From positions 42,309 through 106,308 of the IMG/VR virus record IMGVR_UViG_3300032290_001460: 64,000 bases of DNA. The stretch is one strand, 5' to 3'. This DNA comes from a virus (lineage: Duplodnaviria > Caudoviricetes). Positions 1-40,928 of this stretch are shown here, in pieces. Each line of letters begins with the position of its first letter. Position 1 is the first letter of the stretch. Made by a program: the position numbers and the translations under genes. The notes under the pieces were generated by a model. It searched no databases and was not told where the DNA came from. It saw nothing but the letters and a program-made list of their open reading frames with translations.

Positions 1-189
1 AATAACGAAACTCAACGTTTAATTTCTGAAGCCATATATAATTCCTATGGGATACGGGACGAAGAACAGCGTGCTAGTGGTGTTAGGTCTAACCTAAATT
101 CTATTTTTACCGAAATTTTGGCTAAAAGACGACCAGATATGGCTATCAATGAGGCTCGTCGGGCGTGGAATTTCCCGCGCCCTCTATAG
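1..189 (+). CDS. 3' end of upstream gene, probably portal protein or MuF-like head morphogenesis protein (partial)
   Basis: Frame 1 is open from base 1 to TAG at 187-189 (NNETQRLISEAIYNS...RRPDMAINEARRAWNFPRPL). The pattern resembles the MuF/SPP1 gp7 helical segment (N.T...I / R...IA..E..RA.N). It lies directly upstream of the prohead protease. Confidence 0.5.
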   Translation, partial: NNETQRLISEAIYNSYGIRDEEQRASGVRSNLNSIFTEILAKRRPDMAINEARRAWNFPRPL

Positions 190-297: not shown

Positions 298-3200
298 ATG
301 AGCCAAGGAACATTTGAAGACATCCATTTTAAGGCGATGAATGGCCAATTCAATATAGATGAGGCACAAGGAATCGTTGAATGTTTCGTTGCCGCCGTAG
401 GTAACAAAGACTCCGTGGGTGACATCGTCGCATCGGGGGCATTTACAGAAAGTCTCAAGCGCCGCAAACCGCGCGTTGTATGGGGACACAACTGGAACGA
501 CCCCATCGGTAAGGTTCTAGAAATTTACGAAGTACCAGCACACGACCCGCGTCTCCCAGGAAAAATGAAGCAAGCAGGAGTGGGCGGGCTCTATGCGAAG
601 GTTCAATTCAACCTTGCAACAGAAAAAGGTCGCGAAGCATTTGCTAGCGTCGCTTTCTTTGGTGGAGACCAAGAATGGTCTATCGGCTATAAGACTCTCC
701 AAGCAAACTTTGACTCCGCCATGCAAGCAAACGTTTTGCGTGAAGTTGAACTGTACGAAGTGAGTCCAGTTCTTCATGGTGCAAATCAACTGACAGCCAC
801 AATTTCCGTCAAGAGCGACGAAGGTGAAAAGTGCCACAGTCCTGCTATGGGCGCTGGAATGCCAATGATGCCAGCAGTAATGCGTGCTTTTAAACCAGGG
901 ATTCCAGAAGGTGGCCCATCGCGCATTTCGGCAAGAATTGGCTACGACGTTTCTAGTCCTCGTGAAGATATTTTTGCAGAAGGCGAAGCACGCGAACTTA
1001 ATCGCGAAGAAATTTATAGACTTGAAGAAGAACTGATGTCACGTTCTAATAATCGTCTCAAGATTATCTCCGCAACTGAAAATATGGTCACATTCCATCG
1101 GATGCTCCCCAATGGTTCATCAACGGCTTACCGTCTCCCATACCACTACGATACGGCTGTTAGACAATACATGTTTGGCAAACCAGAGAAGATGGGACAA
1201 GGTCCTAGCCAGCCTCAACCACAAACAGTCGTTCCTATGCAGATGCCCAGTATGCCAATGTCTGTCAAGCCGAATGCCGTCAGCCCATATGCCATGGTTA
1301 ACGGTGGATACGATGGCGAAAAATCCGTTGAAGAAAGACTCCATGAAGTTATTGCTGGCTTAAAGTTGCCGCTCTTCGACGATGAAGTAGCAGAAAAATC
1401 TCAACAAGATAAAATTGAGGAAGTAGTGAATCTTCTTCAATCCTATATTGAAGAGAAGAGCGAACCCATGCGTGTCATTATGAAATGTGAACCGCATCAA
1501 GCGTTCCGTGTTAAGGAACTACTCGACCCGGTAATTGAGTATCACGGACTTCAGGCAGAAGTCAGTGAAAAGGGCGTCCATCTTTCAGGGACATTCAATG
1601 ATGAAACACTCGATGCACTATATGCGTCAGAGAAAAGTATTCAACGGATGTTCATGAAAGAGGGTGGTTGGGGAAAAGATAACGGCCCTACGGGGCCGAC
1701 CTTCGAAGTTGAAGTAAAAGCCCTCGGAGGCCGAGTTGGCCAAAGAATCGGTGGAGGCCTGAGTGCTGCACCACCAGGGATGGTTTGGGTTGACGTAACC
1801 GGAGCCATAGATGGCGATAGCGATGGAATAGTTTTTGAGGGTACGCCTATGCAGCGTCCCATTATTCCTCGTGCGATGATTCCCAAGGTGCAGGCGTCTA
1901 TACTTCAACAGACTTCCCTCCCCCGCGCTATGGAAATGGAGCGAAATAGGGTTCCTAAACCATCTGTTTCGCAAGAAGATTCCAAACCACGTTTAAATCA
2001 GGTTCCTAAAAAGAATGAATCAGATTCAGTGGTGCCTTCTAAGCCTATTCCAAAAATAGACGACACTATTCCAACACCCAGTAAGGCTCCTAAAAAAACT
2101 CAGGGGCGCAAATCAAGAAAAAGCCCTCCTACTAATCCGAATATATACGACCCGTGGGTTTATAGAAATTCAGGAACCGAGCGCATTCTTGGTAACGAAT
2201 TCAGCATCATTACGCCACTAGATGAAATTATTAACTCTGTTAGTTCTAGAAGTAAAAAATTGACTCCTAAAGAAATTATTGACAATTATGCTTATTTCCT
2301 TAATTATAGAGGCCTAGACACTCAACAAGTTTTTAAAATTTTTGAAAACCATGGTTATGTTAATACTGAAAAAGTCAACCAAACCATATCTGATGAGTTG
2401 AAATTTGCGATAGATGACATTATTGCGGCAGGCGGAAGAATTGTTTTTGCACAAAATAATCTTCTAATTAATTTGGGTGGCAATAAATTAATAATTGATT
2501 TATTAGATAAAGATAGTTATAGTAATGTTAGACAGCAGTTAAGTATGCCCTTGAAGCAATTGTATGTAAAAGAAAGAAAGACAGTAACAAATATTTCGGA
2601 CTTGTCTCCTAGGTATAATTATCTTAAGCCAGAATTGAAAAAATTAAAAGAAAAGTATGGCGATTATTTTGTTATACGCGCCCTGGATGCCGGCCATTAT
2701 TCTGCTGTTCTTTTTGACCCCATCTCTGGTGACCCCCTAAAAACTTATCAATTTAGTGGTAGTCCACGAAGTACTTCTAACCTTTTAAAAAACCTTTCTT
2801 CAGAATTTACAAATGCAGCCGTAGTTAGAAGATTTGAATCAGCAAAAATATGGAAGCCAGCGCGCGAAGTCATTGATAAAGTACCGTTGAGACCAGCAAA
2901 TGAAGGGGAAACCCCAAAATTCGGTCCGCTGAGTGGTACTTCTAAGTTGGTTCAGATTTTTTCTGAACTAGGTTTTTCGCCAGACAGTAAAGAATATCCT
3001 AATGCTCTCGTTGAATTAGAAATACATGATATTGGTGACGGAAAATTTGGTGTATATGGTGTAATCGTAGATGAAGATGGCATAGAACACCTCGTGAGCC
3101 AGGAGCAGGATGGTCTTGCAGATTCATTAGATTTTCTTCGTGCACTAGGTTCAGAATATTCTCAGTCGCAATTATCAGAAATGAGAAGTGCTCATCTAAG

Positions 3201-6200
3201 ACGAATGGGGGTCGTTGGTCAATTGGGCGATACTTCTGGGTTGAGTCAAGAAGTTGAAGAAATGAGGGCTGCTCGTGATGAACGAACTTACAATCAGTGG
3301 TTCGTTGATGATGGTAGTCGTTCGCAAAGAACACCTACCCTAATTTATAATACTGCCGCAAAATCTATAAGAGATATTTTTGATGATGAAAAAACATGGG
3401 ACCCATTCTTTGAAGACCTAAAAGATGTTTTGGGTCATTCTCAAAAACAATCGCAACGCCTACTCGACCTCTACGATGACCCGAACGCTACAGAAGAGGC
3501 TATAACTAATCTTGAGGAATCAATTAGGGAATTAGATGAGCAAATTGCCGCCGTTATTGATTACGCAAAATTTTTAAATGGAGAAAATCGTCGCGCTCGT
3601 CTCAAAAGACTAAAGAATCCTCTTATTAACAAAATGATTGACGAACGTACTGGGGGCGAGTATTCGGATTTTACTGATGCTGAAATTGAAAGACTTAGAA
3701 ACAATCTGACTTTTTCCGAAAATGATATAAGCGATATCTTTGGCGTTGAGGGAAGCGATAAGGCTAGAAATTTCGTTGAATCAATGCAGGATGTTTTAGA
3801 TGATGCGGAATGGTATGACGGCATACTGAGCAGTCCTATAGAGGACGAGAATAACCCTGATTATTTGGAAAATCCATCTCAAGAACTTTACGATGATGCT
3901 ATTAGAAGTTTGAGCATGGAAATTGATTTCATAAAAGATGCTAGAAAGCGTAATCATCAACAAAGACTGGCTATTTCGGATGGTAGCAATTTATCCGATG
4001 GCACCAGTCGCTCGCAGCGTTCCTTCATTAATGGACGTGGAGTGGGCGAAACTAGGCAGATTTTCCCCAATGAAGACAAACAGGGAACTAGTAAAAAAAT
4101 TAAGTACGCTCGTTATGATGGGCGCAAAGAAGAACTGCTGGTTGAATATTCCTCTGGTGAAACCATCACCTATGGTGGAGTAACCGACAGGATGGTTTCT
4201 GCAGTTGAGAAATCACTAGATGATATTGATGGCGGGATTGACGGGATAAAAGCAGAAGCACGCTATTCTATTAAACCAGATGGACAAATAGAAGGCAGGG
4301 CGGTTAGTGTAGCAACGCTAGTGCAGAGAGATATTGAACGTCTCGAACAATACGATGTTATTACTGCAAAAGATAAGTTATGGATGCAATTAGCAGCAAA
4401 TGCCATATTGTCAAATTTTGAAGAACCGCCCGAATATGAACTATTATCCTTGTCTGACCAATTGGCTAATGTGGCAAATAAACTTGCTCGCGAATATGAA
4501 GAAAATTCTGCAGCCCTAAACCTTTTAGAAATTAAAAGTTCTATTGACGACAGAGTAGGCAATGGGCTTGGCGGAACTCGCGGTACACGCATGTATCGTC
4601 CACTGAAGGATGAAACAACATTAGATTTAACCAATGACGAAATTGGTGAATTAAGAGACGAAATTCAATCAATTCTAAACAAACATGGAGACAGAATTAC
4701 TTTTGCTCCTTTTGCAGAATTTGACAAAGCGTTAAAGGACGCTCAAGATTCAAACAAAAATAATGTAACAATTAAAAATAATTTACATTCAGCATTAACC
4801 GTTGCTTACGATGAACTTTACTGGATGGCTTCACACAGTCAAGCAGAGAAAAGATGGCTCAACCCCATTGGGGAAACACTACTCAATATTGCTGCAGCAT
4901 CCGGAAGATTCACCTCCCCACGCCTCAGTGCCAATAGGGGAGACTTCAAGGGCGTCCCATTCAATAATGGCGCACCATCAAGAATGACCCCCGAAGCACG
5001 AACTACCCTCATAGATTGGGCAAACGGAGACGGATTAGGGTTCTATGTTCTAAAAGACATACGTGATTCTTATCGACTCAGGAATGGAAATCTCACCTCG
5101 CGACAGTGGAACACTCTTGCGAACATGTACAGGCGCTTTGGTCCTGGTGGCAGTGACAGAAAAGACTCAAGTAGTAGAAGTAAAAAAGATACAGAAATCT
5201 ACTATGCCATTGTCCCTTCGGACGTCCCGGACCAAATTGACGATGAGGAAGAAGAAAAACCAAAACCCAAGAAGCCAGTAGGAAAACCTGCTTCAGAGTT
5301 ACTGCCAGGCGACTTTGATTCAATGACTGCAAAAGAAAAAATTGATGTCATGTTTCAAATTGGACGTGCAACAAAAGATAATCCCGATGGCATCGCCCCA
5401 GAAGATTGGGACAGACTAATTTATCCCCTAGACAAGGAACTTGATGTAGAAGAAGCAGTACAGAACCAAGCAGAATTCATGGCTGCACAAGAAGCCGCTG
5501 CAATGAGAGGCGAAGTACTAACAGAAGAACAGTTCTACGAAAACAAATCACGTCAAGCGGAATTACACGACAGAAGAACAATACAGCGTGCATTAAGTGA
5601 ATACGACGCTGGACGACCCGAGTTATTGCAAAAACTTGGCCTACGTAGAGAAAACTTTATTATTAAAGCAGATAGAGAATACAAGGCCCCCACTAAGCCA
5701 AAGCCGTTAGGTAAATGGGCTACAGATTTCTCCATGAAGATACGTTCTCAAATAGAAAAAGCAATTGCCAATGGGCTTGCCGGAGAAGAACATCTTGACC
5801 CATGGCTATCCATGGAAGAACTTATTAATGACAACGATGGTCTCCTTGATGAAGAAACTATCCAAAACATTATCCCTGTCCTAGAAGAATATGTCAGTGC
5901 TTATGATGGGGCAGAATTTGGACATCGTTCAGAAGGTAATAGTTATAAACAAGCCAACGACATGATTGAGGAGTTGGAAAATACTCTTTCAATTCTTCTT
6001 GACCCAACAATAATCGAAGACGATTCCGATGATAGCGGAGATGACAAGAAAGACAGCGACGCTGCCTCAGAAGTTCCAGATACAACTCAGGGAGTTTCTC
6101 TATCCATAGAGGGCGATAGTGGTTCAAAAAGCCGTCGCTCATCATCTATGGCAAGTACTACGGGCAGACAAGACGCTGTTGATTCCGGAAGTAACCAAAT

Positions 6201-9200
6201 AAATTCCGAAGATAGTAGCAGGAGTATCCGAGAAGTAATCAAATTAGAAGATTTACTTGAAATAGATAAGCGCGAACAATCCGAAGATATGGGAGAACCA
6301 TTCGTTGAGTTATCAAAGGCCCTCGAAAATTGGTTAAATAATCATATTTCAGATATGGGCGGATGGGACAAAAGTCACGAAACTCGACTACGTAGGCAGG
6401 TAGAAGATTTAATTTTGAATTTACGTGGCTTGCGAGACAAGTGGCAGTCCATGGGGACTGCTAAACGAAGCGGAATATTGAGACGCATGAAGATGGTTGA
6501 TGGCTACGAACCGCACCCTCTAACTAAAATGTCACTTGAAGATATCATTAGTAAATCAGAATTACGTATTCACGATGACGGAACTCTGTCTTTCAAATTG
6601 CCTCCCAACCCAATATTGCGGCAACTCATACCAGGCAACAGAAATTATCAAGATGTAGAGTTGCCCACTGCTGAAACTGTTAGTGAAATTTTTGATAATC
6701 TCACAAATGATTGGCGCAGATTAGATGAATTATTCAATTCAATATATGAAGTTTTTGATGAAGATGAAGACGGGCGACGTGGAGCGCGCCTAAGGAAATA
6801 CCCTGTCGGCGGGGAAAAACTGCCGCACCACTCCTTGTATCTTGGCAAGTACGCTGAACCCCCGACAGAAGCACCATCTCCGGAAGGGGCGCTCCAATAC
6901 CACTACAACGACATTTCTGCTCGTATTCTTCAGTATTACATTATCCCTGAATTAGCAAAAATTAAACGCAATGAAAATCCAAAAATTGGAGAAATCTCCA
7001 ACGATAACGACCATTTTATTCATGGATATTTACAGTTATTTACAGACCCGCATGCCTGGCAGGAGATGAGTGCTGTGTTGTCTGAAAACTTCCGTGTATC
7101 GCCCGGCACCATATTGCATGACTTATTGGGGCACTACGCCCTTGGTAATACTTTTGATAGACACGGAGAATATGGAAATATTCTTTCAACAATTCAACTT
7201 GCTCGCGATAAGAAGTTCTGGCAGAAGTTGCGCGAGATACCAGAACTTTCTGACCTATCCGAAGAGGACAGGGACCTCTACATGCGCGGCTTGCTCGTTG
7301 ATGTGGCCGCAAGATGGTTTAATCGTGTCGGTACAGACTCCCCGGATGACGAGAGGAGATTGAAGAAGAAAATAGCGTTCTACGATGGACCTATTGATGA
7401 ACTTCTTGACAAAATCGACCCGCCTAACGAACAATCGTCAAGTTCTAGTCGTTCTACACGAAGAATCCCATTAATCGATGTCGATGATAAACAACTTTCT
7501 GAGTTAGGTAAAGAATCTATTGATGGTATTGCAATAAGAGAAGAATTTATTAGACCATCTTCTCGTGACGAATTAGAACAATTTGTTTCACGAAGAAAAC
7601 CGATAGGTTCGGACCTGCCTGTTGATTTACGCACTGGCGAACCTCGCCGCATGTCTCATGAGACAGACAGAGAGTGGAATGCTAGAAGAAATAATTTTTA
7701 TAGAAACAACCCATGGTTTGACCGGCCCCCTATTGATGCTTCTGAAGATTCCCCTAAAATTGATAGAAATAACGAATTTGGTGATGGAGAATTAATTAAA
7801 CCCTCATATAAATTTAATTTTAAATGGAACCAGTATCAAGATTATACTGATGAGGAATTAATAGATAAACTTAAATCAGACAAAAAACCTTCCAATACTT
7901 TGGTGCATGAATTGTCTTTACGTGGATATGAAGTTAGAAAAAAAAGAGAATATGATTTAGGTGATTTTAGTGGTAGGGAAGGATATGACTACACATACTT
8001 CTTTGCTAAGCCAATGGATGAAATAACCCAAGAGCATCTTGATAGAAGAAAATCTAAATACAATCCAGTTGATGAAACACAAAAAATAGATGAGCCGTCA
8101 ACCAGCATAATTCCTACATTGGAAGAAGACGTTGTTGATGAACAGGATTTTGTTGAGCCAGAAGAATTCCCATTAAAGCCGAAACAGCCCAGGGTTCCTC
8201 GTCCTCGACCCGGTACCAACACCGTGAATATTGGTGGCAATAATTCGGGAATCATAAATCTCGGCAACAATGTGACAATTGATACTGGCGACATAAATGT
8301 TTCTAATCAGGGCAGTAAGATTACTATTATTAATGGGAACAAGGTTACTGTTGATGCCAATACGGATGTATTGAGTATGCCATTGAAAAAAGTTGATGAA
8401 GAACTTGCTAGCATACAGAAAGATTTAGCGGAACTTAAAGAAAGAAGAGTAAAGGGCAGTATTTCTGATGCTGATTATGCTCAGCGACGCGTAGATTTGG
8501 CTAATAGGAAAGTTGCTCTCAAATTAAAGAAACATTCCGTCCCTGATGGTGATGCAACCAAGGGCACACCCAATGTTTCCTATATTGGCAACAGTTCAAG
8601 GTCAACCAGAAATATTGATTATTATCGTAGGGAATTTAATCTTTCTCCAGAAGATTTGGAATTCATCAAATATACCAATGCCCCAGATTTATTTTTGCGT
8701 GAAGAATTTGGGATAGACGATACAGCCATAGCAGACATTCGTTCTTATGTGCCGCCGTTGGATGTCATCAAGGAAATAGATTCTTTAACCGATGATGATG
8801 TTAGATTCCTTGAATCTTACGATGGTATTGTTTCACAAATTACTGAAGAATTTAATTCTTTTGTAACTCGGACGATGGCCGAACGTCTTCAGGCTATTCA
8901 ATACATAGGAAATTCTAATCTCCCTGAATTGGAAAAACAAGAAAACATAAAAGAAATTGATGATGCATTTAATGAATTATTAAAAGTTAACAGTGAAATA
9001 CATTTCGATAGGCTGAATGATGCCGTACTATATACGGCACCTTTAAATTATCGCGGTTTTGGTTGGAGGATGACCCCAGAAAGAATTTCTTCACTTGGCT
9101 TACCTGAAGGCTATGAAAACAAATTAAAGTTCAATCAGGCTACTCGCATTTGGGAAATGATGAATGGACTGGGCTTTGACTGGGACGAAATCGAAGATTT

Positions 9201-12200
9201 CACTGGTTTGACTTTTGATGAATTGAAACCCCTATTCCCACATGTCCGAATTATCGGGATGATACGCGAACAGGAGAAAAACTCTTTAAATAATCCTCCT
9301 GAAGATGGTTCTTCTTCTCGTTCAATGAGGCCCGAACGTCGTCAGATAGTCCCAATATCTGGGAATTATACGAGACAAGGTAATTTACATAGAAAGTTAG
9401 ATGGACTTCTAACACCCGGCAGTAGTGATTATCGCAAAGATGATTTAAGTGATGAGGAAATATCTGCCATAAAGAAGTTTAGTTACTCCCAAACAGTAAG
9501 GTACGACTACGACTATGACCCGTTGTCGTTAATGACCTACGAAGAATTAGACACATTATCAAATCTCATAAGTGCAGACAGAGCAAAGTCTTTAAACGTT
9601 GAATTCGATAAAGATTTTCGAAAATTAATCGAACAAGAATTCGACATACGAGACATACGAAATGACCCCTTCAAGTATCGAGGTGGTGGCAACGAAAGAA
9701 AATTAAAGAGAGAATTCGTATCTGCAGAAGAATTCTTAGGCCCAGGCATGGACGGATATGCAATTAATAGAGGGATGCATGGTGGATGGCTGTATCCGGA
9801 TGGACGCATATATCCGCTACAACAAGATTCCCACGGTACTGAGTTTGTTTATCGTGATGCTTTTGAAGATGGTTTAATTCGGATTATTTTCTCTCAAAAA
9901 AGTCAAAGGCGAGATTCATCTATGGATTTGGAAATAGCAGACGCTCGACCAACTCCAGAGCAGTATGAGACTTTACAGAAACTTATGGATGCTGGAGAAC
10001 CTAGTGAAATACGTTTTGCTGCTGGTAAAAAAAGTGAGGAGTATGATGCGTCTTATACTTCTCGACCCACTTATCAGTATGAGAATGTTTTACGTGGCAA
10101 AGATACTAAAAAATTAAAAGAATCTTTGACGCAAGAAGTTTCATGGAAGCAAGAAGAGTCTACTAGTGATGACAGTTCTTCTTCTCTCTCAAAAAAGGGA
10201 ACATATCGACCTCTTCTTGGTCATACGTTCGAAGGTTATGGTCAAGCGGAAAAGAAGTTGTCATACAGTTTAGAAAAATTAAGTAAACAAAATGGTGCTG
10301 CCAAAAAATTAAACGATGAAGAAAAAAATGTAATTGAAAAATATTTTCAAATCAAAAATGCAGATGCAGAGCCATTGAGATTACTCTCAGATGATGAAAT
10401 AAAAACTTTACTTAATTTAATTAGTGAAGAAAAACTGACAGTGAGAAATGCCGACCTATCTGCAGAACTGTTGGGTGTTTATAGAAAAGATGCAGAATAT
10501 TTACTTATACGAGAATTAGATATTCGTTCCAACCCTCAAAAATATAAGTTTGGTGGAAATGAAAGAAAACTAAAAAACAGATTTCTTTCAGCAAAACAAC
10601 TAGTCGACCCTGAAACAATGGGTGTTTGGGAGACTCCATCATTACGGGCAGCATGGCTTTATCCAGATGGAAGGCTTTATCACGTAACTGATGGACATAC
10701 AAAAGAACATACCTACAACGACGCTTTTGGAGATGGTCTTATTAGGTTGAATGTAAGTTTGGCCAAGGAAAAAGATGACAGAGGTCCAGCCACCGCTCCA
10801 TTTTTGGCTATACATGCAGCCGACATAGCCCCTACTGCTGAGCAAATGAAAATATTAGAGGAACTTATTGATGTAGCCAAGCCGAAAGAAATCTTCTATC
10901 AGGCTGGAGTGAGTAGCAAAATACATAATCCGAACGAAGTTATTCCTGACGACTCCGACTTTGGCATCTATGTAGAAGGTGAACGAAGTGGAACTATAAA
11001 ATCTGGCGACCTGAAGAAAAGGCTGAAGCAAGAATTGGATGCAGTTGGCTGGGCGAAATTGCCAGACAACGACTCTTCTTCTCGTTCCAAGAAAGATACA
11101 GATTCTGATTTATCTGACGAAGAATTTAAAATCATCGACGATTTTGTTAATGCTGATATCGACAACATTGAGCCAGTTGAAGAAGAACCTACGGACGGCC
11201 GAACGCGTCGGGCTCGTGCAAAAAAAAGAGAAGAATTCTTAAGAGATGCTGTTACTCAAATCATCAAACTTTCAGAAAATGCGGAAAAATTTAAACGTGG
11301 GCCAGATGCTGGTGAAGTCTCTGGAGGTCTTTTGGAAAAGGTGGCACAGATGTTCGCCGCAGGAGACTATAGCATCATAGATAAATATGAAAAAATAGTC
11401 AAAGAAAAAGGCGCAGGAACAAGCCCGGGTGAATTTTTTGCTAACTCATATTATAAATATGAATCACTTGGCGCCGAACAAAGATTAGAACGCCAAAAAG
11501 GTGGAAACAAGCAAAAGGGCAAGTTTGTTGAAAATATAGAAGCATTAGAAGCAAAAATAACTGATGGGGAAAGTAGTTTTGTTTTGCCAGAATTGTCTAT
11601 AGAAGATGATTTGAGCGTCGGTGAAATTGATGAAGACGTCGCTAAGAAAATTGCGTTTTATGATAAATTTGAAGAATATTTACCCTTACATGCAGAAATT
11701 ATGGGATATATCGGGTCTGGGATGACTGCATCTAAAATTAGCAAGCAAACAGGAGTTCCTATAAAGATAGTTAATGCGATGAAAAGCAATATGGCTTTTA
11801 TTGCAGAACAATTGGGCGATATTGAAAATTGGCCCCTGGATTCACTGGACGAAGATTATCGGGATATAGCGAAACTTTTGCCAGGTGACGATATGTCGTT
11901 AAATTTGGATATTGCCAAACGTCTTCAAAAAGCAAAAACATTTTTTGAAACTATCGAATTTGATAGAGATACTGGAGAAATAAGTTTCGAGCAAACATCA
12001 ATTGCTCAAAGACAAATTAAACTTGAAAAAAATAATGATATTATATTGTCATTTTTTGAGGACGGGAAGCCTGCTCCGACCATAGAGGAAATTGCCAAAG
12101 CCCTTGGCGTTACGTTCGATTCCGCCAGAGGGCTAATTGTTAGATTGCGGAAAACTACTGGTAGAAAACTGAAAACTGGGAAGAAGGAAGAAAATAGCAA

Positions 12201-13563
12201 AAAAATAGATGATGATATTTTATCTTTATTTAAAGATGCTGAAAATCCACCGACTAAGAATGAACTGACGAAATTGACAGGACTATCACAGGATGCAGTA
12301 TATATCCGATTAATTAAATTGCGTGAAAATACTGGTCGAGAATTAAGCCTCGCAACAGATGACGAAAGAATAAATAATACAATTCTGTCTTTCTTTAAAG
12401 ATGGCGGAAAATCGCCAGATATGAAGAAAATAATGGAAGTAACAGGCCTGCCATATAAAGCGATACATAAAAGACTAGTAAGGTTGCGTAAGAAAACTGG
12501 ACGTGAACTAAAACTGGAAGGGCAGCGAACGAGCGTAATAGGAGATATTGGTGAGACTATTTTATCGTTTTTCGAGGATGGTAAAATTCCGCCAACTCGC
12601 GAACAACTAGCAGATGCAACGGGTTTGCAATTAGATTCGATAAGTCAAAAGTTATCTAAATTACGAGAAATAACTGGGCGGGATTTGCCAGTTCGTATAA
12701 ATCGAACAATTGAGCCGAAAAGTGCAGAAATAAACAATACAATTTTATCTTTATTTAAAGATGATGAAAAAAATCCTACTAGTGCTGAAATTATTGAAGC
12801 GACAGGGTTGACGCGTTCAATGTTGGGGAAAAGATTGGAATATTTGCGTAAAAGAACTGGGCGTGAATTAAAACTAAGAAAAAAAGAAAATAAAGAAAAA
12901 AAACCTAAATTGGTTGTTGAACGCAAACCTAAATTGGTTGTTGAACGCAAACCTGGAGATACGTCCAAAGAAGAAAAAAAGACTCCAGACGAATTGGTCT
13001 TATCTTTATTCAAAGATAGTAAAACGCCCCCAACCATGCAGGAAATAGTAAGAGAATTAGGAGTGTCGTATCCGGCTGCGAAAGAACGGCTTAAGAGATT
13101 ACGCCAAAAAACCGGCATGGCATTGTCAATTACTCCCGTGCCGGCGATGCCAATATTAAATGATGCCATAAATCAACAACTTTTATCTTTGTTTGAAAAT
13201 AATAAAAATATAACTACTGAACAAATTGCGAAAGCAACAGGGTTGTCTGTTTCTGCAATAAAGGGCAGATTGGTTCGTTTACGAAAAGAAACAGGAAAAG
13301 AGTTATCTATTAGTAGAGACCTGCCACCAAGCCTTAGAGATGATATTAGTAAGACTATTTTATCATTTTTTGAAGAAGGTAAAAGTGCACCAACCCGACA
13401 GCAACTAGTGGACGCAACGGGATTCTCCGCAGATGGAGTAACTAGACGCTTACAAAAATTGCGTAAAGGAACTGGGATGGACCTACAACTCGCCGGAACC
13501 AAAACCCCCGAAGGTCGAACCACAATGCCGAAGTTAGAAATTATTCCACCAAAAGAAAAATAA
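298..13563 (+). CDS. Giant 4421-aa protein: N-terminal HK97-family prohead protease fused to a multi-domain cargo region (KTSC-like domain, HDxxGH domain, duplicated WLYPDG domain, C-terminal HTH array)
   Basis: Residues ~20-170 carry caudoviral prohead protease motifs (GNKDSVGDIVASGAF, WGHNWNDPIGK, EWSIGY, LREVELYEVSPVLHGAN). GGAG precedes the ATG. The 13.3-kb ORF is uninterrupted. Confidence 0.9.
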   Translation: MSQGTFEDIHFKAMNGQFNIDEAQGIVECFVAAVGNKDSVGDIVASGAFTESLKRRKPRVVWGHNWNDPIGKVLEIYEVPAHDPRLPGKMKQAGVGGLYAKVQFNLATEKGREAFASVAFFGGDQEWSIGYKTLQANFDSAMQANVLREVELYEVSPVLHGANQLTATISVKSDEGEKCHSPAMGAGMPMMPAVMRAFKPGIPEGGPSRISARIGYDVSSPREDIFAEGEARELNREEIYRLEEELMSRSNNRLKIISATENMVTFHRMLPNGSSTAYRLPYHYDTAVRQYMFGKPEKMGQGPSQPQPQTVVPMQMPSMPMSVKPNAVSPYAMVNGGYDGEKSVEERLHEVIAGLKLPLFDDEVAEKSQQDKIEEVVNLLQSYIEEKSEPMRVIMKCEPHQAFRVKELLDPVIEYHGLQAEVSEKGVHLSGTFNDETLDALYASEKSIQRMFMKEGGWGKDNGPTGPTFEVEVKALGGRVGQRIGGGLSAAPPGMVWVDVTGAIDGDSDGIVFEGTPMQRPIIPRAMIPKVQASILQQTSLPRAMEMERNRVPKPSVSQEDSKPRLNQVPKKNESDSVVPSKPIPKIDDTIPTPSKAPKKTQGRKSRKSPPTNPNIYDPWVYRNSGTERILGNEFSIITPLDEIINSVSSRSKKLTPKEIIDNYAYFLNYRGLDTQQVFKIFENHGYVNTEKVNQTISDELKFAIDDIIAAGGRIVFAQNNLLINLGGNKLIIDLLDKDSYSNVRQQLSMPLKQLYVKERKTVTNISDLSPRYNYLKPELKKLKEKYGDYFVIRALDAGHYSAVLFDPISGDPLKTYQFSGSPRSTSNLLKNLSSEFTNAAVVRRFESAKIWKPAREVIDKVPLRPANEGETPKFGPLSGTSKLVQIFSELGFSPDSKEYPNALVELEIHDIGDGKFGVYGVIVDEDGIEHLVSQEQDGLADSLDFLRALGSEYSQSQLSEMRSAHLRRMGVVGQLGDTSGLSQEVEEMRAARDERTYNQWFVDDGSRSQRTPTLIYNTAAKSIRDIFDDEKTWDPFFEDLKDVLGHSQKQSQRLLDLYDDPNATEEAITNLEESIRELDEQIAAVIDYAKFLNGENRRARLKRLKNPLINKMIDERTGGEYSDFTDAEIERLRNNLTFSENDISDIFGVEGSDKARNFVESMQDVLDDAEWYDGILSSPIEDENNPDYLENPSQELYDDAIRSLSMEIDFIKDARKRNHQQRLAISDGSNLSDGTSRSQRSFINGRGVGETRQIFPNEDKQGTSKKIKYARYDGRKEELLVEYSSGETITYGGVTDRMVSAVEKSLDDIDGGIDGIKAEARYSIKPDGQIEGRAVSVATLVQRDIERLEQYDVITAKDKLWMQLAANAILSNFEEPPEYELLSLSDQLANVANKLAREYEENSAALNLLEIKSSIDDRVGNGLGGTRGTRMYRPLKDETTLDLTNDEIGELRDEIQSILNKHGDRITFAPFAEFDKALKDAQDSNKNNVTIKNNLHSALTVAYDELYWMASHSQAEKRWLNPIGETLLNIAAASGRFTSPRLSANRGDFKGVPFNNGAPSRMTPEARTTLIDWANGDGLGFYVLKDIRDSYRLRNGNLTSRQWNTLANMYRRFGPGGSDRKDSSSRSKKDTEIYYAIVPSDVPDQIDDEEEEKPKPKKPVGKPASELLPGDFDSMTAKEKIDVMFQIGRATKDNPDGIAPEDWDRLIYPLDKELDVEEAVQNQAEFMAAQEAAAMRGEVLTEEQFYENKSRQAELHDRRTIQRALSEYDAGRPELLQKLGLRRENFIIKADREYKAPTKPKPLGKWATDFSMKIRSQIEKAIANGLAGEEHLDPWLSMEELINDNDGLLDEETIQNIIPVLEEYVSAYDGAEFGHRSEGNSYKQANDMIEELENTLSILLDPTIIEDDSDDSGDDKKDSDAASEVPDTTQGVSLSIEGDSGSKSRRSSSMASTTGRQDAVDSGSNQINSEDSSRSIREVIKLEDLLEIDKREQSEDMGEPFVELSKALENWLNNHISDMGGWDKSHETRLRRQVEDLILNLRGLRDKWQSMGTAKRSGILRRMKMVDGYEPHPLTKMSLEDIISKSELRIHDDGTLSFKLPPNPILRQLIPGNRNYQDVELPTAETVSEIFDNLTNDWRRLDELFNSIYEVFDEDEDGRRGARLRKYPVGGEKLPHHSLYLGKYAEPPTEAPSPEGALQYHYNDISARILQYYIIPELAKIKRNENPKIGEISNDNDHFIHGYLQLFTDPHAWQEMSAVLSENFRVSPGTILHDLLGHYALGNTFDRHGEYGNILSTIQLARDKKFWQKLREIPELSDLSEEDRDLYMRGLLVDVAARWFNRVGTDSPDDERRLKKKIAFYDGPIDELLDKIDPPNEQSSSSSRSTRRIPLIDVDDKQLSELGKESIDGIAIREEFIRPSSRDELEQFVSRRKPIGSDLPVDLRTGEPRRMSHETDREWNARRNNFYRNNPWFDRPPIDASEDSPKIDRNNEFGDGELIKPSYKFNFKWNQYQDYTDEELIDKLKSDKKPSNTLVHELSLRGYEVRKKREYDLGDFSGREGYDYTYFFAKPMDEITQEHLDRRKSKYNPVDETQKIDEPSTSIIPTLEEDVVDEQDFVEPEEFPLKPKQPRVPRPRPGTNTVNIGGNNSGIINLGNNVTIDTGDINVSNQGSKITIINGNKVTVDANTDVLSMPLKKVDEELASIQKDLAELKERRVKGSISDADYAQRRVDLANRKVALKLKKHSVPDGDATKGTPNVSYIGNSSRSTRNIDYYRREFNLSPEDLEFIKYTNAPDLFLREEFGIDDTAIADIRSYVPPLDVIKEIDSLTDDDVRFLESYDGIVSQITEEFNSFVTRTMAERLQAIQYIGNSNLPELEKQENIKEIDDAFNELLKVNSEIHFDRLNDAVLYTAPLNYRGFGWRMTPERISSLGLPEGYENKLKFNQATRIWEMMNGLGFDWDEIEDFTGLTFDELKPLFPHVRIIGMIREQEKNSLNNPPEDGSSSRSMRPERRQIVPISGNYTRQGNLHRKLDGLLTPGSSDYRKDDLSDEEISAIKKFSYSQTVRYDYDYDPLSLMTYEELDTLSNLISADRAKSLNVEFDKDFRKLIEQEFDIRDIRNDPFKYRGGGNERKLKREFVSAEEFLGPGMDGYAINRGMHGGWLYPDGRIYPLQQDSHGTEFVYRDAFEDGLIRIIFSQKSQRRDSSMDLEIADARPTPEQYETLQKLMDAGEPSEIRFAAGKKSEEYDASYTSRPTYQYENVLRGKDTKKLKESLTQEVSWKQEESTSDDSSSSLSKKGTYRPLLGHTFEGYGQAEKKLSYSLEKLSKQNGAAKKLNDEEKNVIEKYFQIKNADAEPLRLLSDDEIKTLLNLISEEKLTVRNADLSAELLGVYRKDAEYLLIRELDIRSNPQKYKFGGNERKLKNRFLSAKQLVDPETMGVWETPSLRAAWLYPDGRLYHVTDGHTKEHTYNDAFGDGLIRLNVSLAKEKDDRGPATAPFLAIHAADIAPTAEQMKILEELIDVAKPKEIFYQAGVSSKIHNPNEVIPDDSDFGIYVEGERSGTIKSGDLKKRLKQELDAVGWAKLPDNDSSSRSKKDTDSDLSDEEFKIIDDFVNADIDNIEPVEEEPTDGRTRRARAKKREEFLRDAVTQIIKLSENAEKFKRGPDAGEVSGGLLEKVAQMFAAGDYSIIDKYEKIVKEKGAGTSPGEFFANSYYKYESLGAEQRLERQKGGNKQKGKFVENIEALEAKITDGESSFVLPELSIEDDLSVGEIDEDVAKKIAFYDKFEEYLPLHAEIMGYIGSGMTASKISKQTGVPIKIVNAMKSNMAFIAEQLGDIENWPLDSLDEDYRDIAKLLPGDDMSLNLDIAKRLQKAKTFFETIEFDRDTGEISFEQTSIAQRQIKLEKNNDIILSFFEDGKPAPTIEEIAKALGVTFDSARGLIVRLRKTTGRKLKTGKKEENSKKIDDDILSLFKDAENPPTKNELTKLTGLSQDAVYIRLIKLRENTGRELSLATDDERINNTILSFFKDGGKSPDMKKIMEVTGLPYKAIHKRLVRLRKKTGRELKLEGQRTSVIGDIGETILSFFEDGKIPPTREQLADATGLQLDSISQKLSKLREITGRDLPVRINRTIEPKSAEINNTILSLFKDDEKNPTSAEIIEATGLTRSMLGKRLEYLRKRTGRELKLRKKENKEKKPKLVVERKPKLVVERKPGDTSKEEKKTPDELVLSLFKDSKTPPTMQEIVRELGVSYPAAKERLKRLRQKTGMALSITPVPAMPILNDAINQQLLSLFENNKNITTEQIAKATGLSVSAIKGRLVRLRKETGKELSISRDLPPSLRDDISKTILSFFEEGKSAPTRQQLVDATGFSADGVTRRLQKLRKGTGMDLQLAGTKTPEGRTTMPKLEIIPPKEK
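12043..13488 (+). repeat. Eight tandem ~55-aa helix-turn-helix repeats at the C-terminus of the giant protease fusion
   Basis: The consensus ILS[FL]F[EK]Dx3-4PTxx[EQ][IL]xxxTG[LV]x7RLxxLRxxTGx[ED]L is readable eight times. Confidence 0.85.
12901..12948 (+). repeat. Exact 24-bp tandem duplication (KPKLVVER x2)
   Basis: aaacctaaattggttgttgaacgc at 12901-12924 and 12925-12948. Confidence 0.95.
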
Positions 13564-13849: not shown

Positions 13850-15646
13850 ATGAATTACGACGAAAAAGCCGTAGTGAAAATTGATGCCGAAGGTGGCGTC
13901 GTCAAATGTGCCAAAGGTGCAACAGGAAGCGACTGCGGCTACAAGGCAGGCGCAAAAGTTTGTGGAAAATGCGGAGCAATGGCCGTTGAAATCAAAATGG
14001 TTCCCGTCGATGCCATGGACGAAGACATGGAAGACGACGAGGAGATTACTCCTGAAGAACAGAAAATGTTGATGCGTCGTCGCAAGGCTATGCAAATGGG
14101 CATGGGCGATATGGCCGAAGAAGAAGATGTCATGGACGACGACGAGGAGATGACCCCCGAAGAACAGAAAATGGCCATGGACTACGAAAAAATGATGCTC
14201 AAGCGCAAGGGCATGGGCAAATATACGGAAGACGAAGAAGTCTTAGAAGTGCCCGAAGAAGACGAGATGATGGACGAAGAAGCCGTCACCCCAACAGCAA
14301 AAACTTATGGAATGAATCGCTTTAGAAAAGGCATGCCTGGGGTTTCGGCCATGGATGAAGATATGGCCGAAGAAGAAGATGTCATGGACGACGACGAGGA
14401 AATGACCCCCGAAGAACAAAAAATGGCTATGGCCTACGAAAAAATGATGCGTATGCGCAAGGGTATGGGCGAATACGTGGAAGACGAAGAAGAAATGCTT
14501 AGCCCTGCCAAGGGGATGGGCATGACGAAGCCAGGCATGAAGTTCAAGAATCCAATGGCTAAGCCAGGAATGGCCGGAATGCTTTCGGACGAAGAAGATG
14601 ACATGGACATCGAAGAAGAACTCCCATTGGACGATGCCGAAATGCCAATGGCAATGCCCAAAAAGAAGAACTACATGGGGGCAGAACCCAGCGCAGTATC
14701 TCCAGACATGGAAGCAATGCGCATGGCACGACTTAGAAAACTCGGTACCAAGTCTGCTGACATCGGTGCCAACGGATACTTGTGTGCTATCGAACGCAAA
14801 GTCTACCCCGGCGCCAACTCGGTATGTGACGACTGCCCAGGTGGATGCGTCTCAGAAAAAGGAATGCCTGGCCTCCTCCACATCGAAGGCCTTGCAGAAC
14901 AAATGTTCAAGGGCGACGTTATCGACTCTGGCTACTCGCAAGAAGCCGACATGTTCGTCGTTGATGTCCAGGTAAAGTCTGGTCATGTCAACGAAGTTTT
15001 TGTTGACGGCACAACCGGAGAAGTCCTAGGATTCCATCGCCTTGACGATTCAGTGTTCGAACAGAAGTCACTCGTCAGCGACATCGAAATCATTGACTTC
15101 AACGAAGCGGCAGATATTGCTGTCAAGTCAATCCCCGGTACAGTAGTCGCCGTAGAACCAGCAATCTTTGAAGGTTTTGACTCATACCAAGTCGAAATCG
15201 ATGGTCTTGACGGAAAATCTTACGATGCTTTCGTTTCGCTTGATGGCGAAGTTTTGGGCTACGACCAGTGGGACAATGACGACACAGCAGAGATTGAGGC
15301 TGAAGCCGCAGAAATTGCTTTGAAGCGCGCATTCGGTGACGAGAAGCGTCAAGAAATGGCTGAAGAAGGCACAGCAATGCCTGACGGCTCATTCCCCATT
15401 GCCAGCGAAGAAGACCTTCGTAACGCAATCATGGCTCATGGTAGAGCGAAGGATGTTGAGGCAGCAAAGCGTCATATCATGAAGCAGGCTGCAGCAATGG
15501 GTAAGGAAGACATGATTCCAGCAGAGTGGGTCGCCGGACAGAAGAATCTTTCAATTGAAGATGATTTGAACGGCACTGACGAGTTCTTGAAGACTTTGGT
15601 TGAGTTTGAATTAATGTCTGCAGAAGTTTCCGACAACGAACTGTGA
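13850..15646 (+). CDS. Putative scaffold or head-assembly protein: Met/Asp/Glu-rich low-complexity region, Cys clusters, two PepSY-like domains, C-terminal DUF6582-like domain
   Basis: It follows the protease gene, has a strong RBS, and has C/G-ending codon bias like the capsid gene. PepSY-like motif: FNEAADIAVKSIPGTVVAVE...YQVEI...VSLDGEVLG. C-terminal motif: AMPDGSFPIASEEDLRNAIMAHGRAKD...IPAEW. Confidence 0.65.
   Translation: MNYDEKAVVKIDAEGGVVKCAKGATGSDCGYKAGAKVCGKCGAMAVEIKMVPVDAMDEDMEDDEEITPEEQKMLMRRRKAMQMGMGDMAEEEDVMDDDEEMTPEEQKMAMDYEKMMLKRKGMGKYTEDEEVLEVPEEDEMMDEEAVTPTAKTYGMNRFRKGMPGVSAMDEDMAEEEDVMDDDEEMTPEEQKMAMAYEKMMRMRKGMGEYVEDEEEMLSPAKGMGMTKPGMKFKNPMAKPGMAGMLSDEEDDMDIEEELPLDDAEMPMAMPKKKNYMGAEPSAVSPDMEAMRMARLRKLGTKSADIGANGYLCAIERKVYPGANSVCDDCPGGCVSEKGMPGLLHIEGLAEQMFKGDVIDSGYSQEADMFVVDVQVKSGHVNEVFVDGTTGEVLGFHRLDDSVFEQKSLVSDIEIIDFNEAADIAVKSIPGTVVAVEPAIFEGFDSYQVEIDGLDGKSYDAFVSLDGEVLGYDQWDNDDTAEIEAEAAEIALKRAFGDEKRQEMAEEGTAMPDGSFPIASEEDLRNAIMAHGRAKDVEAAKRHIMKQAAAMGKEDMIPAEWVAGQKNLSIEDDLNGTDEFLKTLVEFELMSAEVSDNEL
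14108..14470 (+). repeat. Near-identical ~111-bp direct repeats inside the scaffold-like gene
   Basis: 14108-14218 and 14360-14470 both encode DMAEEEDVMDDDEEMTPEEQKMAMxYEKMMxxRKGMG. Confidence 0.9.
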
Positions 15647-15666: not shown

Positions 15667-18600
15667 TTGGAGCCCGGTATGACGGGTAGGAGTATCCCTC
15701 GCCGATATTCAAAAATAAATCAGAACACGAAGACTACTTCGCGTATTGAAAAGTCTGCTGTCCATTTTCGTTCTTTGCAGGAATTTTCGGCTACTAAACC
15801 TTTCATGGACCCAACTATTTCTGTCAAGGTTCTTGGCGATGGTCTGAAATCTTCTGGGTCCGGCGATGGCAAGGAACGTACTAGTGGGCCTGATGGCGAC
15901 GAATATGATGGTCCTGTAATTAAACTTGACTGGAATCCTCGTGCGAAGAGGAAACCTGGTCAGATTTTGAAACTGCATGCTTCTTATAGGGAGTTGACTT
16001 CCAAAGAGGGAGCGAAGTGGGGTTGGGTGGACCCTCCTAAGGAAGTTAGTGCTGAAGATAGTGCAAGATTTTTACAGCAAGCAATTGAATGGAAGAAAAA
16101 ACAACCAAAAGCAGTTTTAAAATTATATAAAAATACTTCTCATGGCACGCATGAATTGGAGCCAGTTAAAGAAATTAATATTAAGACTTTGGCTGAGTCT
16201 TTCAATTTTGAAAACTCACAAGATTTTTATTCAGGAAATTTTCATAATGCTCTTTCAGAAATCCCTCTCGAATTTAAACAATTAGGGCAAACTATCGGAC
16301 AAATTTTGCCTGGTCAACGAATTGACTTGGCTCGTGCTGTTAGTCGGGGATTAATAGTAGACGCAAACGGTAAATTCAGGTGTCCTTCAGGGACTCCAAA
16401 TGCCAACCAATTCACTGACTTGGACATGTCTAACTGCTCAACGTTTAGTCCAAAGAAAATTGCTGGAAGATTAGACAGGGCTATTAGTCGGTTTGAGGCT
16501 TGGAAGGAAGAGGGCCTAAGACTAGCGGACGAACGAGACATGATTGACTCTATTAACCCGCGTTTCCAAAGAGCCAAAAAAAATTATACGACCCTTGACC
16601 GTAATAGGGAAATTGAAGAACGTTCTCAAGACATTATTAAAACTATTTTAAATATGCCAGAACTTCGCCAGTTCTTGTTGGATAATGGCTTTGACCCAAG
16701 TGATGACACTACCGTAAATAATGCTGATTTATTTGCATATATCATGCTGTACGATAAGACGTTTGAAAGTCAACCCGATGCATTAGACCGCCAATTATCA
16801 AGAATTGAAGGACTGTTTGGAGATGCTTTGGTTTGGGAACCAGTTCTTGATAGCCAAGGTAACCCCGTTATGGATAGCCAAGGTAACCCCGTTATGAAGG
16901 CACGACCTTTTAAATATGATAGGAATAAAAACTTTAAAGAAAATATGGCGGACTATCGTGAAGCCGTAGGGAATACAATACTTTCGATAATTGGTGACCA
17001 GAGACTTACTTCAGGTAAAAGTTTGAGCGATGCTCTAAAAAATTATAAAAACCCCACTCATCCTTTGCATTCCCAGTATCTCGAAGCAAAAGTGATTTTG
17101 GATAATTTTATGTTGACGCACGAGATGGTGCAACGTGGAACATTGATGACGTATGCTCAACATTCCGTAGAAAACCCTGAACAATTCGGGATAATAACCA
17201 AATTTGAAGCGTTTATGCCGGAGCACGTTACACCTGGGGCTCCAGTCGACGACGAAACCATTGCAGCATTCTGGGCCATTGAGGGTGAGATGGCCTCTGG
17301 GGCTGGCATGGGTTACCAGACTGCAAAAATTATGCGCTCCAATACTTTTCAAATGATGTTCTCCCCCTTTATAGATATGCGTGCTCTTGCTCAAATTACG
17401 GAGCCAACTCCAGAAAATCCTTATGGATTGACAGCAAAACTAGATTTTCAGTCACAGGGGAACGTTGAACTTTCTCTTCAAGAGAAAATGCAACTTTGGA
17501 GTCAAATGCTCAACCAGATTCAAGATGCTGACACTTTTGCCAGAATGCTTCGACAACAAGCGCGAACAGATGAAGAAAAGATGTTCGTACAATTACAAGA
17601 ACAAGTTAAGCAAAGACAAGAGCAACTAGGTCGAATTTTTGTTGGTGCTGAATTACAAAATGAACTACGCAATATAGCCAAAAGAATGGGCATTAGCGAG
17701 GATGCTGCTTCTAGGATGTGGTATCAATTCTCCAAAGCATCAAATATGTTTGCCAACGACTTGTCTGCTTCAAGAATAACAGAACTAAATGGTGGAATGA
17801 GTTTCAATCTTGCCCTTCAGGCCAAAGCGCGACATGTCGCATGGCACGAAATAGGACATTCACTGCAATATTATTCGGCTGGTAAAAGAATTCAAGAATT
17901 TGTTGACGCCGAAGGGGGCTTTCCTTTATTCAGAGACGGAAAATTAATTAGAGAATTAGGGCCGGATACAACGCAATGGACTAACGACGACTGGCGAATG
18001 GCTGTCAATAGTTTAGTACTAGACGCCCCACAACTTATTACTCAATGGCCTCCTGATGGTGTTGGTAAATTTGAAGAAAAAATGCTCCATCTTCTTTCTG
18101 GAGCATATTATCAAAATGAAATAAAAGACTTTTGGAAAAATCCTTCTAGCGTGAGTCCCAAATTGGCCGTTGCTTTAACGGAAGCGCACGTTGAACTCTA
18201 TGCTCTCAAAAAAATGGGCGTCATAGAAGGTGATGATATAGATACTACTTTAGAGTATTTTGAAAATATTATTCCATCACGGGGGTATAGGTCTCCTCCC
18301 GCCCCCATATCACCGAACCCTCCACCGCAACCACCTGCTCCTCCAGGTCCTCCTGCTCCTCCAGGTCCTCCAGGCCCTCCAGGTCCTCCAGGCCCTCCAG
18401 GCCCTCCAACACCACCAACACCACCAACACCACCAACACCACCAGGTGGTGGTCGCACCGTGACTATTGGTGGCGATAATACTGGAATCGTCAATCTTGG
18501 CGATAATGTAACAATTGAGACCGGCGACACATTTGTTGTCGGCGACATTATCATTGATGGCAAAAAAATTGACCCAGATAACATTACTATCAACATTAAT

Positions 18601-25755: not shown

Positions 25756-25758
25756 AGG

Positions 25759-28959: not shown

Positions 28960-28961
28960 TA

Positions 28962-30581: not shown

Positions 30582-30584
30582 CTC

Positions 30585-38807: not shown

Positions 38808-39062
38808 ATGAGATACATATATTTGACATCAGATAAGTTAATGGATACACCAGAGTCCGTGGTAACTATTGATGGTGATGAAGTGAAAGTTTATTCTGCA
38901 TCTTTGGATTTTAAGAAGATTCTTGAGGATGTCATTCAGGGCAGTTCTGGTCAAAAACTTGAAGATAAATTCAGTCGCATGTCATACTATTCTACTGAAT
39001 TCGGTGATATGAATTCTGAGATGGAAGCGGTTATCAAAAAATTAGAAAGAACTGAAAAGTAA
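38808..39062 (+). CDS. Small hypothetical protein (84 aa); candidate inhibitor or partner of the upstream effector
   Basis: The ATG abuts the TAG of the polyvalent gene. Confidence 0.65.
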   Translation: MRYIYLTSDKLMDTPESVVTIDGDEVKVYSASLDFKKILEDVIQGSSGQKLEDKFSRMSYYSTEFGDMNSEMEAVIKKLERTEK

Positions 39063-39098
39063 CAATAATTTTACTTATTGCCAAGGAGGAGGTGTGTT

Positions 39099-40688: not shown

Positions 40689-40697
40689 GGTAAACAA

Positions 40698-40919: not shown

Positions 40920-40928
40920 AATACTACA

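Follow-up and report, generated by a model that had tools for sequence, protein, structure and literature searches.

A giant open reading frame headed by a prohead protease in a freshwater phage: a candidate capsid-loaded polyprotein

Tailed phages are thought to express the cargo of their heads as separate proteins, each with a targeting peptide. In herpesviruses, UL26 carries the protease assemblin at the N-terminus of a scaffold protein, the protease frees itself at Ala/Ser sites, and the nested UL26.5 gene sets the ratio of protease-bearing to protease-free product. Here we analyse an open reading frame (ORF) of 4421 amino acids (aa) that begins with an HK97-type prohead protease of the S78 family. 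It lies at 298..13563 in a 64,000-nucleotide (nt) stretch of a Caudoviricetes genome (IMG/VR record IMGVR_UViG_3300032290_001460, positions 42,309 to 106,308), hereafter the window; positions are those of the window unless stated otherwise, and all features placed on it are on the plus strand. The protease-containing N-terminal part (aa 1-~460, the N-module) is followed by a conserved tag of ~50 aa and by cargo that a recurrent hexapeptide linker divides into modules, and a candidate -1 frameshift site sits between N-module and tag. With moderate confidence, we favour the view that the ORF encodes a capsid-internal polyprotein of an uncultured freshwater myovirus, whose linker-joined cargo would be loaded into the head, cut and ejected.

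UL26/UL26.5 offers a partial analogy, as a longer capsid-internal protein there begins with an assemblin-fold protease and two products come from one locus, which may also be the case here. However, the C-terminal partner in herpesviruses is the scaffold, and the ratio is set through a nested promoter rather than a frameshift. A second analogy is retroviral Gag/Gag-Pro-Pol, where a -1 heptamer and a downstream structure set the fraction of chains with extra domains and an in-chain protease cuts linkers after assembly, much as we propose for this phage. In contrast to the retroviral case, the protease here is in the common upstream part, the slip would shorten the product in genomes with a fused ORF, and the virus is a double-stranded DNA (dsDNA) tailed phage.

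The nearest cultured relatives are actinobacteriophages such as the Gordonia phage ChisanaKitsune (47% identity in the capsid protein, 40% in the protease). Its gp30 (501 aa) and HK97 gp4 are homologous to the protease studied here and are also encoded in the head module. Unlike the giant ORF, the proteases of HK97 and actinobacteriophages are 225-500 aa long and directly precede the capsid gene. The Gordonia protease also has a scaffold-like tail, whereas here a separate scaffold-like gene (B_598) follows the giant ORF.

In T4 and SPN3US, head cargo carries targeting propeptides that the prohead protease trims at a short motif, and the cargo is ejected with the DNA (PMC7411985). The internal proteins and Alt of T4 and the ejection proteins of phiKZ and SPN3US thus resemble the proposed system in having an N-terminal address on head cargo, protease trimming and ejection (PMC7411985). 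They differ from it in that their cargoes are separate proteins, each cut once, and their protease (T4 gp21 family) has its own gene; here ~eleven modules would share one S78-headed chain, and the ~50-aa tag is unrelated in sequence.

The polyvalent proteins of phages and conjugative elements described by Iyer, Burroughs, Anand, de Souza and Aravind in 2017 (PMC5512222) are also giant multidomain proteins encoded beside head genes, and the passages of that paper on their fate predict that they are packaged, processed by a built-in peptidase and injected with DNA. Their hallmark domains, ArdC-N with MPTase-PolyVal, Zeta toxin and helicase, recur in homologues of the giant ORF or in a 2740-aa neighbour. 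In the relevant passages an assemblin-like peptidase is rare and ‘always at the C termini’ (PMC5512222), unlike the N-terminal and universal peptidase of the present family, and the same passages describe no clade-specific linker motif, shared tag or recoding site at the peptidase boundary. For N-terminal S78-polyprotein fusions, we found no description in the full-text literature searched, a collection whose coverage leaves out most subscription journals.

A protease-headed reading frame and its family

The source record is a 106,308-bp contig (CheckV completeness 71%) that encodes a tail sheath. In it, 298..13563 is a single uninterrupted frame of 4421 codons that starts ~100 nt after the end of the portal gene (695 aa; PHROG 2662/12 portal, E 1e-58), whose 3' end occupies 1..189 of the window and whose start lies upstream at contig position 40410. 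An earlier note on this DNA, made from the letters alone, had described an intact-looking HK97-type protease heading the ORF, and had named an assembly chimera or frameshift that splits the protease from the rest among the findings that would refute it. The junction between protease and cargo is bridged without indels by contigs from three independent lake-water metagenomes (X2 spanning 1-1973, X4 1157-1927 and X6 1100-1733), and the stretch around it (1200-3200) is present in 20 runs from 19 studies, 18 labelled as lake water. Natural variants of the ORF (n = 35) fall mostly at third codon positions (27; p = 1.4e-7), and 26 are synonymous, so the ORF is under purifying selection. Because independent contigs bridge the junction without indels and the variants are mostly synonymous, an assembly artefact is excluded; relatives are fused alike.

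The protease domain itself bears out the same note. It spans aa 22-174 (361..819) in Pfam (PF04586 Peptidase_S78, 41.1 bits against a cut-off of 21, E 2.7e-10) and aa 19-176 in PHROG 80, ‘head maturation protease’ (E 7e-27). The three strings that the note had quoted are all present and hold the key residues: His64 in WGHNW, Ser128 in WSIGY, and Glu154 and Ser156 in EVSPV. Ser128, Glu154, Ser156 and His160 do not vary among 121 giant homologues, and the catalytic pair His64 and Ser128 is unchanged throughout a 43-sequence alignment (A1). When aligned to HK97 gp4 with MAFFT, Ser128 falls on the catalytic Ser114 and His64 lies one column off His65, a local shift. An AlphaFold model gives the domain moderate confidence (predicted local distance difference test, pLDDT, 60-79). 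Foldseek with the model returned no match at E <= 0.001; its weak matches were headed by the Epstein-Barr virus (EBV) protease (E 0.055), with further herpesvirus proteases and T4 gp21 among the weaker ones. No PDB chain matched aa 1-561 by sequence at E <= 1. Within the record, which is 71% complete, the 4421-aa ORF is the sole S78 match and no ClpP-type protease was found.

Two small domains follow the protease. The first (aa 231-300, 988..1197; pLDDT 81-87) is family-specific and conserved in both the 43 and the 121 homologues. The second (aa 390-455, 1465..1662; pLDDT 78-86) is the point just after which 35 relatives of 456-486 aa end, at ~aa 455-465 of the 4421-aa protein. Judged by sequence and model, the N-module is a prohead protease plus two small family-specific domains. 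The disordered, poorly conserved linker between the latter contains a motif, P-x-Q-M-P-S-M-P-M-x-V-K-P (aa 312-325, 1231-1272), that is nearly invariant across the family and might serve for docking or cleavage. Some relatives carry a DUF6321 insertion between the protease and the first of the small domains.

With aa 1-500 as query, 212 matches were obtained among proteins of 2431-7737 aa. All those listed are giant, and the >200 metagenomic proteins that share the N-module are 2400-5700 aa long. The S78 domain is N-terminal in the 120 matches listed, with one exception in the precomputed Pfam list. The cargo of the listed homologues includes ArdC-N with MPTase-PolyVal, UvrD-type helicases, sigma region 4, pentapeptide repeats, an exonuclease and KTSC domains. 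Five homologues share ~90% identity across the N-terminal 500 aa; their C-terminal array of winged helix-turn-helix (wHTH) repeats is that of the 4421-aa protein, and their module content differs. Gene order is conserved as terminase, portal, protease[-giant ORF] in the loci of five relatives, and the capsid gene comes next in L005, the sole relative locus that reaches that far.

N-modules also occur in shorter proteins, which form a size continuum from 456 aa upwards. In two phages with such a split arrangement, the next gene is an ORF of 3322 or 3693 aa. The protease is N-terminal in all 236 N-modules sampled, of which 204 are fused and 32 split. In a midpoint-rooted FastTree phylogeny, with sampling biased by the search windows and uncertain rooting, the split forms fall into two clades that lie within fused ones, one of the two being sister to the clade of this phage. 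Fusion therefore appears to be the prevailing state, not an accident. We also considered that the fusion arose when the stop between two ancestral genes was lost, and rejected this origin given the nesting of the split clades in that tree.

Candidate frameshift site, linkers and tag

The candidate -1 slippery heptamer G_GGA_AAA (1671..1677, codons 459-460) is placed exactly between the N-module and the tag. A TAA stop in the -1 frame follows one codon past the slip (1680..1682), giving a predicted product of ~460 aa, the size of the stand-alone proteases of relatives. Five nt past the heptamer is a predicted GC-rich hairpin, CGGCCC / GGGCCG (1683..1698; ViennaRNA, 60 nt: -24.2 kcal/mol, z = -2.8). 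The first 700 codons contain three in-frame heptamers, and this is the most stable fold predicted downstream of any of them. The background is 32 in-frame heptamers in 4420 codons of the ORF (0.7%).

A heptamer with a hairpin occurs at this boundary in 7/8 loci of the clade. Two heptamer types are represented, and they underlie differing residues (WGK, LGK, SKK, PKK). Among loci with a fused ORF, G_GGA_AAA is found in the window, L015 and L016, and A_AAA_AAA in L013 and L017. A -1 slip would meet a stop after 1 codon in the window, L013 and L016, after 2 codons in L017 and after 5 codons in L015; in L016, the immediate stop is retained despite zero-frame codons after the heptamer that differ from those in the window. 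The split loci L009 and L014 have A_AAA_AAA, and there a -1 slip would lead into 3324 and at least 1005 codons, respectively, of the tag-led giant ORF. The third split locus, L008, has no heptamer, and a -1 slip is not applicable to it. When five sequences are folded together with RNAalifold, the consensus retains a 5-bp stem in which two pairs are compensatory. The pattern suggests that fused and free protease may both be made, with opposite default ratios in fused and split genomes. Given this recoding-like site, we argue that the covalent link between protease and cargo would be functional. No slippery site was found at the equivalent boundary of L005 and L007, which belong to other clades, so the recoding claim is limited to this clade.

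The cargo is punctuated by the strict hexapeptide [SGT]-S-[RK]-S-x-[RK], which a motif scan finds ten times in the 4421-aa ORF: at aa 649-654 (2242..2259), 1006-1011 (3313..3330), 1236-1241 (4003..4020), 1625-1630 (5170..5187), 1942-1947 (6121..6138), 1973-1978 (6214..6231), 2383-2388 (7444..7461), 2766-2771 (8593..8610), 3006-3011 (9313..9330) and 3594-3599 (11077..11094). The head-module ORFs together contain 24 copies in 18,298 aa, against 0 in the remaining ORFs of the contig (14,335 aa); 2000 shuffled sequences gave a mean of 0.43 and a maximum of 3. Natural lake variants occur inside the second linker, at 3313 and 3326: G1006S is nearer to the consensus S-S-R-S, and Q1010R affects a free position.

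The linkers split the cargo into pieces of 230-410 aa and a last piece of 827 aa, for a count of ~eleven modules plus the terminal one, which ends in eight wHTH repeats. Module boundaries and linkers coincide in a duplicated module whose copies A (aa 3050-3302, 9445..10203) and B (aa 3338-3601, 10309..11100) are 35% identical (E 1e-38). Copy A ends in a degenerate linker, S-S-L-S-K-K, and copy B in the tenth strict linker; relatives have a single copy. Among the ~90%-identical relatives, modules are gained and lost at linker sites.

Related clades each have their own over-represented linker on the template G/S-hydrophobic/S-[R/A/S]-S, such as G-M-R-S-R-x-G, D-G-F-A-S-R-G, G-L-A-S and R-L-S-S-G. 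The GFAS linker, for example, occurs in 20-26 copies against 1.1 expected (P down to 1e-26); in one GFAS relative, the motif is restricted to the giant ORF and one neighbour. The Ser at the fourth linker position is invariant across clades and is preceded by R, A or S.

Few cargo modules are recognisable. Apart from the S78 protease, the domains detected in the ORF are a weak KTSC-like match (aa 1265-1301, 4090..4200; PF13619, E 3e-4, below cut-off), a family annotated in many homologues, and the C-terminal array of eight wHTH repeats (aa 3916-4410, 12043..13527). The array is matched above cut-offs by the Pfam families LexA_DNA_bind, HTH_AsnC, MarR_2 and HTH_24, as well as by PHROG 16568, and contains no linker motif; seven repeat starts were located by regular expression and the eighth by eye from the translation. 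Pfam searches with ten separate cargo segments gave nothing above cut-off other than that one weak KTSC match, an ESM Atlas search with aa 1977-2383 gave no usable match, and no MuF domain was seen in the ORF. Several effector domains in one chain are clear in the homologues and in the 2740-aa neighbour.

The cargo starts, right after the N-module, with the tag (aa 474-525, 1717..1872), K-A-L-G-G...D-G-D-x-D-G-I-V-x-E-G-T-P-x-x-R-P, in which Lys474 and Asp505 are invariant among the 121 homologues. One copy occurs in each of six other ORFs of the head block, five between portal and major capsid protein (MCP) genes and one just past the latter. These seven window copies are the only ones in the contig, and six of the seven ORFs lack a protease. 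In split relatives, the tag opens the downstream giant ORF. A profile search found it in 860 clusters among 1.84 billion representatives, most of them lacking a protease. Among the best 130 new ones of these clusters, a protease is present in 12/130 and the tag starts within the first 40 residues in 45/130; in most of the 130 it is N-terminal or nearly so, and one tag-bearing protein combines a Zeta toxin and an ADP-ribosyltransferase. This placement, and the restriction to head-module ORFs within the contig, would give indirect support to a capsid-targeting sequence of the T4 type. The tag is absent from the Gordonia phage and HK97. An equivalence with the C-terminal motif of the Gordonia protease-scaffold ORF was tried and rejected, as that motif matches the 598-aa scaffold-like protein.

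Two further proposals of the earlier note concern how the cargo enters the head and where it is cut. The first, that fusion guarantees packaging, is plausible and partly supported. The ORF occupies the canonical slot behind the portal gene, the fused state predominates, and a slip would rebuild the fusion in split relatives, which fits the idea that covalent protease linkage matters. On the other side, tagged cargo occurs elsewhere without a protease, and fusion to the protease would then not be the sole route for addressing cargo. The second, that the N-terminal part is rich in K-[SA] sites, does not stand over aa 1-480 as a whole (7 against 4.1 expected, P = 0.10) and does over aa 330-480 (5 against 1.3, P = 0.004, an interval chosen post hoc). 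Three of the seven sites are conserved: K172-S173 (also in HK97 gp4), K342-S343 (in at least 90% of close relatives) and K474 (121/121). The hexapeptide linker is a much stronger candidate for the cut signal than K-[SA]. By analogy, it would still fit a preference for a basic residue followed by Ser, as at Lys103-Ser104 in the HK97 gp5 sequence, the site at which the HK97 protease cleaves.

The surrounding head module

Immediately after the giant ORF comes an acidic, Met-rich repeat protein of 598 aa (B_598, 13850..15646). Over aa 492-562 it shares 54% identity with the C-terminal part of the Gordonia protease-scaffold ORF (E 2e-20), where the motif is PDGSFPI...DL.NAI...GRAKD. It is probably the scaffold, to judge from this similarity, split from the protease here by the giant cargo. 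A TTG start 21 nt past this gene opens a 3362-aa ORF (15667..25755) with linkers at aa 1576, 2076, 2190 and 2371; motif and tag scans detected these four linkers and no tag. It shares several segments with the 4421-aa ORF, for example aa 2434-2559 with 2080-2189.

Tag and domain scans identified five further tag-bearing ORFs of 539, 2740, 536, 978 and 1825 aa between 28962 and 49339 (28962..49339). The 2740-aa protein (30585..38807) is of the polyvalent type by its domains: DUF3721, the tag (aa 205-258), Zeta toxin/AAA (675-803), pentapeptide repeats (968-1253), ArdC-N (1548-1663) and an MPTase-PolyVal zincin (1706-1816). Strict linkers are found in it at aa 1526, 1875 and 2253, and aa 590 shows a looser S-R-S match. 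The HK97-fold MCP (439 aa, 51692..53011) is matched by PHROG 10 (E 1e-63) and Pfam Phage_capsid (E 1e-45) and shares 35% identity with HK97 gp5. Past it lies a 1435-aa ORF (53301..57608) with DUF6321 (aa 380-451) and a tag (aa 601-639), which is 28% identical over 277 aa to a 353-aa ORF just before the capsid gene (50221-51282).

Upstream in the same contig is a PAPS-reductase-like gene (PHROG 2302, E 3e-74; contig 20001-40000, locus L002). In the relatives' loci, PAPS-reductase-like, ParB_N, Cas4/PD-(D/E)XK, Rad52 and RuvC genes precede the terminase on the opposite strand, and these annotated genes form a conserved putative replication and DNA-modification block of the phage family. WhiB and transfer RNA (tRNA) genes were looked for as clues to the host, and neither was found.

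Competing explanations and implications

What the analysis shows directly is the ORF with its protease domain, the statistics of linker motif and tag, the family, and a recoding-like site that is conserved; packaging, cleavage, the cutting enzyme, frameshifting and ejection are inferred. Since the ORF holds the only detectable prohead protease and that protease must enter the prohead, the whole chain would most simply enter with it. It would do so together with the assembling shell, with further tagged chains packaged alongside. After the shell closes, the protease would cut the linkers, most likely between Arg and Ser, and the modules thus freed inside the head would leave it along with the DNA and act at an early stage of infection. 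Under standard decoding, translation would yield the fusion and a -1 slip at G_GGA_AAA the free protease of ~460 aa, in a set ratio. More tentatively, and as something possible rather than probable, the freshwater phage family as a whole may have a full capsid-loaded polyprotein system, in which a frameshift sets the protease ratio, the DGDxDG tag serves as address, each clade has private cut sites and dozens of swappable anti-host modules are injected together.

Several observations weigh against the proposed polyprotein. Scaffold and capsid proteins are the usual substrates of prohead proteases, and the linker motif is absent from both the scaffold-like protein and the capsid protein of this phage. 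The protease domain is near-invariant across clades whose linkers differ in the presumed P1 residue (R, A or S); protease residues 137 and 92 do track the linker class, an association that is confounded with phylogeny and that we do not use as evidence. The zincin of the neighbouring 2740-aa ORF is an alternative processing enzyme, and the 3362-aa ORF has linkers and no detected tag. As for the recoding, codon usage in a genome of 41% GC favours A-rich heptamers, and at the L008 boundary (11380-11440 of that locus) the giant ORF likewise lies in the -1 frame, with an ATG of its own and no heptamer. L008 may be either a true split or the bearer of a different recoding signal.

In one rival explanation, the chain is packaged as proposed but the fused S78 protease is not what cuts its linkers. 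Cutting would fall to another enzyme, such as the MPTase-PolyVal zincin or a host protease after ejection, or the linkers would stay uncut as flexible or regulatory linkers, for example as Ser/Arg phosphorylation sites. The head module of this phage encodes the zincin, many homologous giant ORFs contain one too, and MPTases are predicted, in passages of the polyvalent-protein paper, to process such proteins (PMC5512222). The barely varying S78 domain beside differing clade linkers, and scaffold-like and capsid proteins that lack the motif, point the same way. However, many family members, P0007, P0014, P0022 and P0095 among them, have strongly enriched linkers yet no MPTase in the giant ORF, and S78 is the one peptidase common to all. 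Moreover, the invariant fourth-position Ser after R, A or S would fit cleavage at Lys/Ser as in HK97 and at Ala/Ser as in assemblin. We regard this explanation as rather unlikely.

It is improbable that the role of the protein is chiefly structural, with its many modules building a scaffold of the head core or inner body, or a core that organises DNA, instead of acting as ejected effectors. Ten of the ~twelve modules match no known enzyme family, the eight-fold wHTH array could organise packaged DNA, and the gene sits among head-assembly genes. Yet homologues swap effector and anti-defence domains into these places (ArdC-N with MPTase, UvrD helicases, exonuclease, sigma region 4, pentapeptide repeats), module content varies even among ~90%-identical relatives, unlike a structural core, and a separate scaffold-like protein is present.

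Polyprotein expression is a common viral economy, and the chain might on that ground be cytoplasmic and never packaged, with the protease freeing non-structural proteins in cis or trans. This seems very improbable, as prohead maturation requires that the only prohead protease in the record enter the prohead, the gene is flanked by those for portal and scaffold, and the shared tag is confined to head-module ORFs. There is a negligible chance that two genes were joined by chimeric assembly or by a frameshift in sequencing: split relatives do stop at the same boundary, but three independent lake metagenomes bridge the junction without indels, and five ~90%-identical proteins (ENA, JGI, Logan) and >200 distant ones are fused alike.

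If the capsid-internal polyprotein is real, the linker motif provides a simple computational rule for cutting giant ORFs into functional units, and would open hundreds of modules to screening for anti-defence and host-takeover functions. The tag and N-module could serve to load foreign proteins into HK97-fold capsids. The abundance of the family in lake metagenomes, illustrated by 20 runs from 19 studies for this strain alone, makes it ecologically relevant. It would also account for the tens of kb of mostly unknown cargo genes in the head module (~50 kb here, about half of the contig). With a protease-headed, punctuated polyprotein, dsDNA phages would follow the expression logic of retroviruses, RNA viruses and UL26, especially if recoding sets the ratio of free protease.

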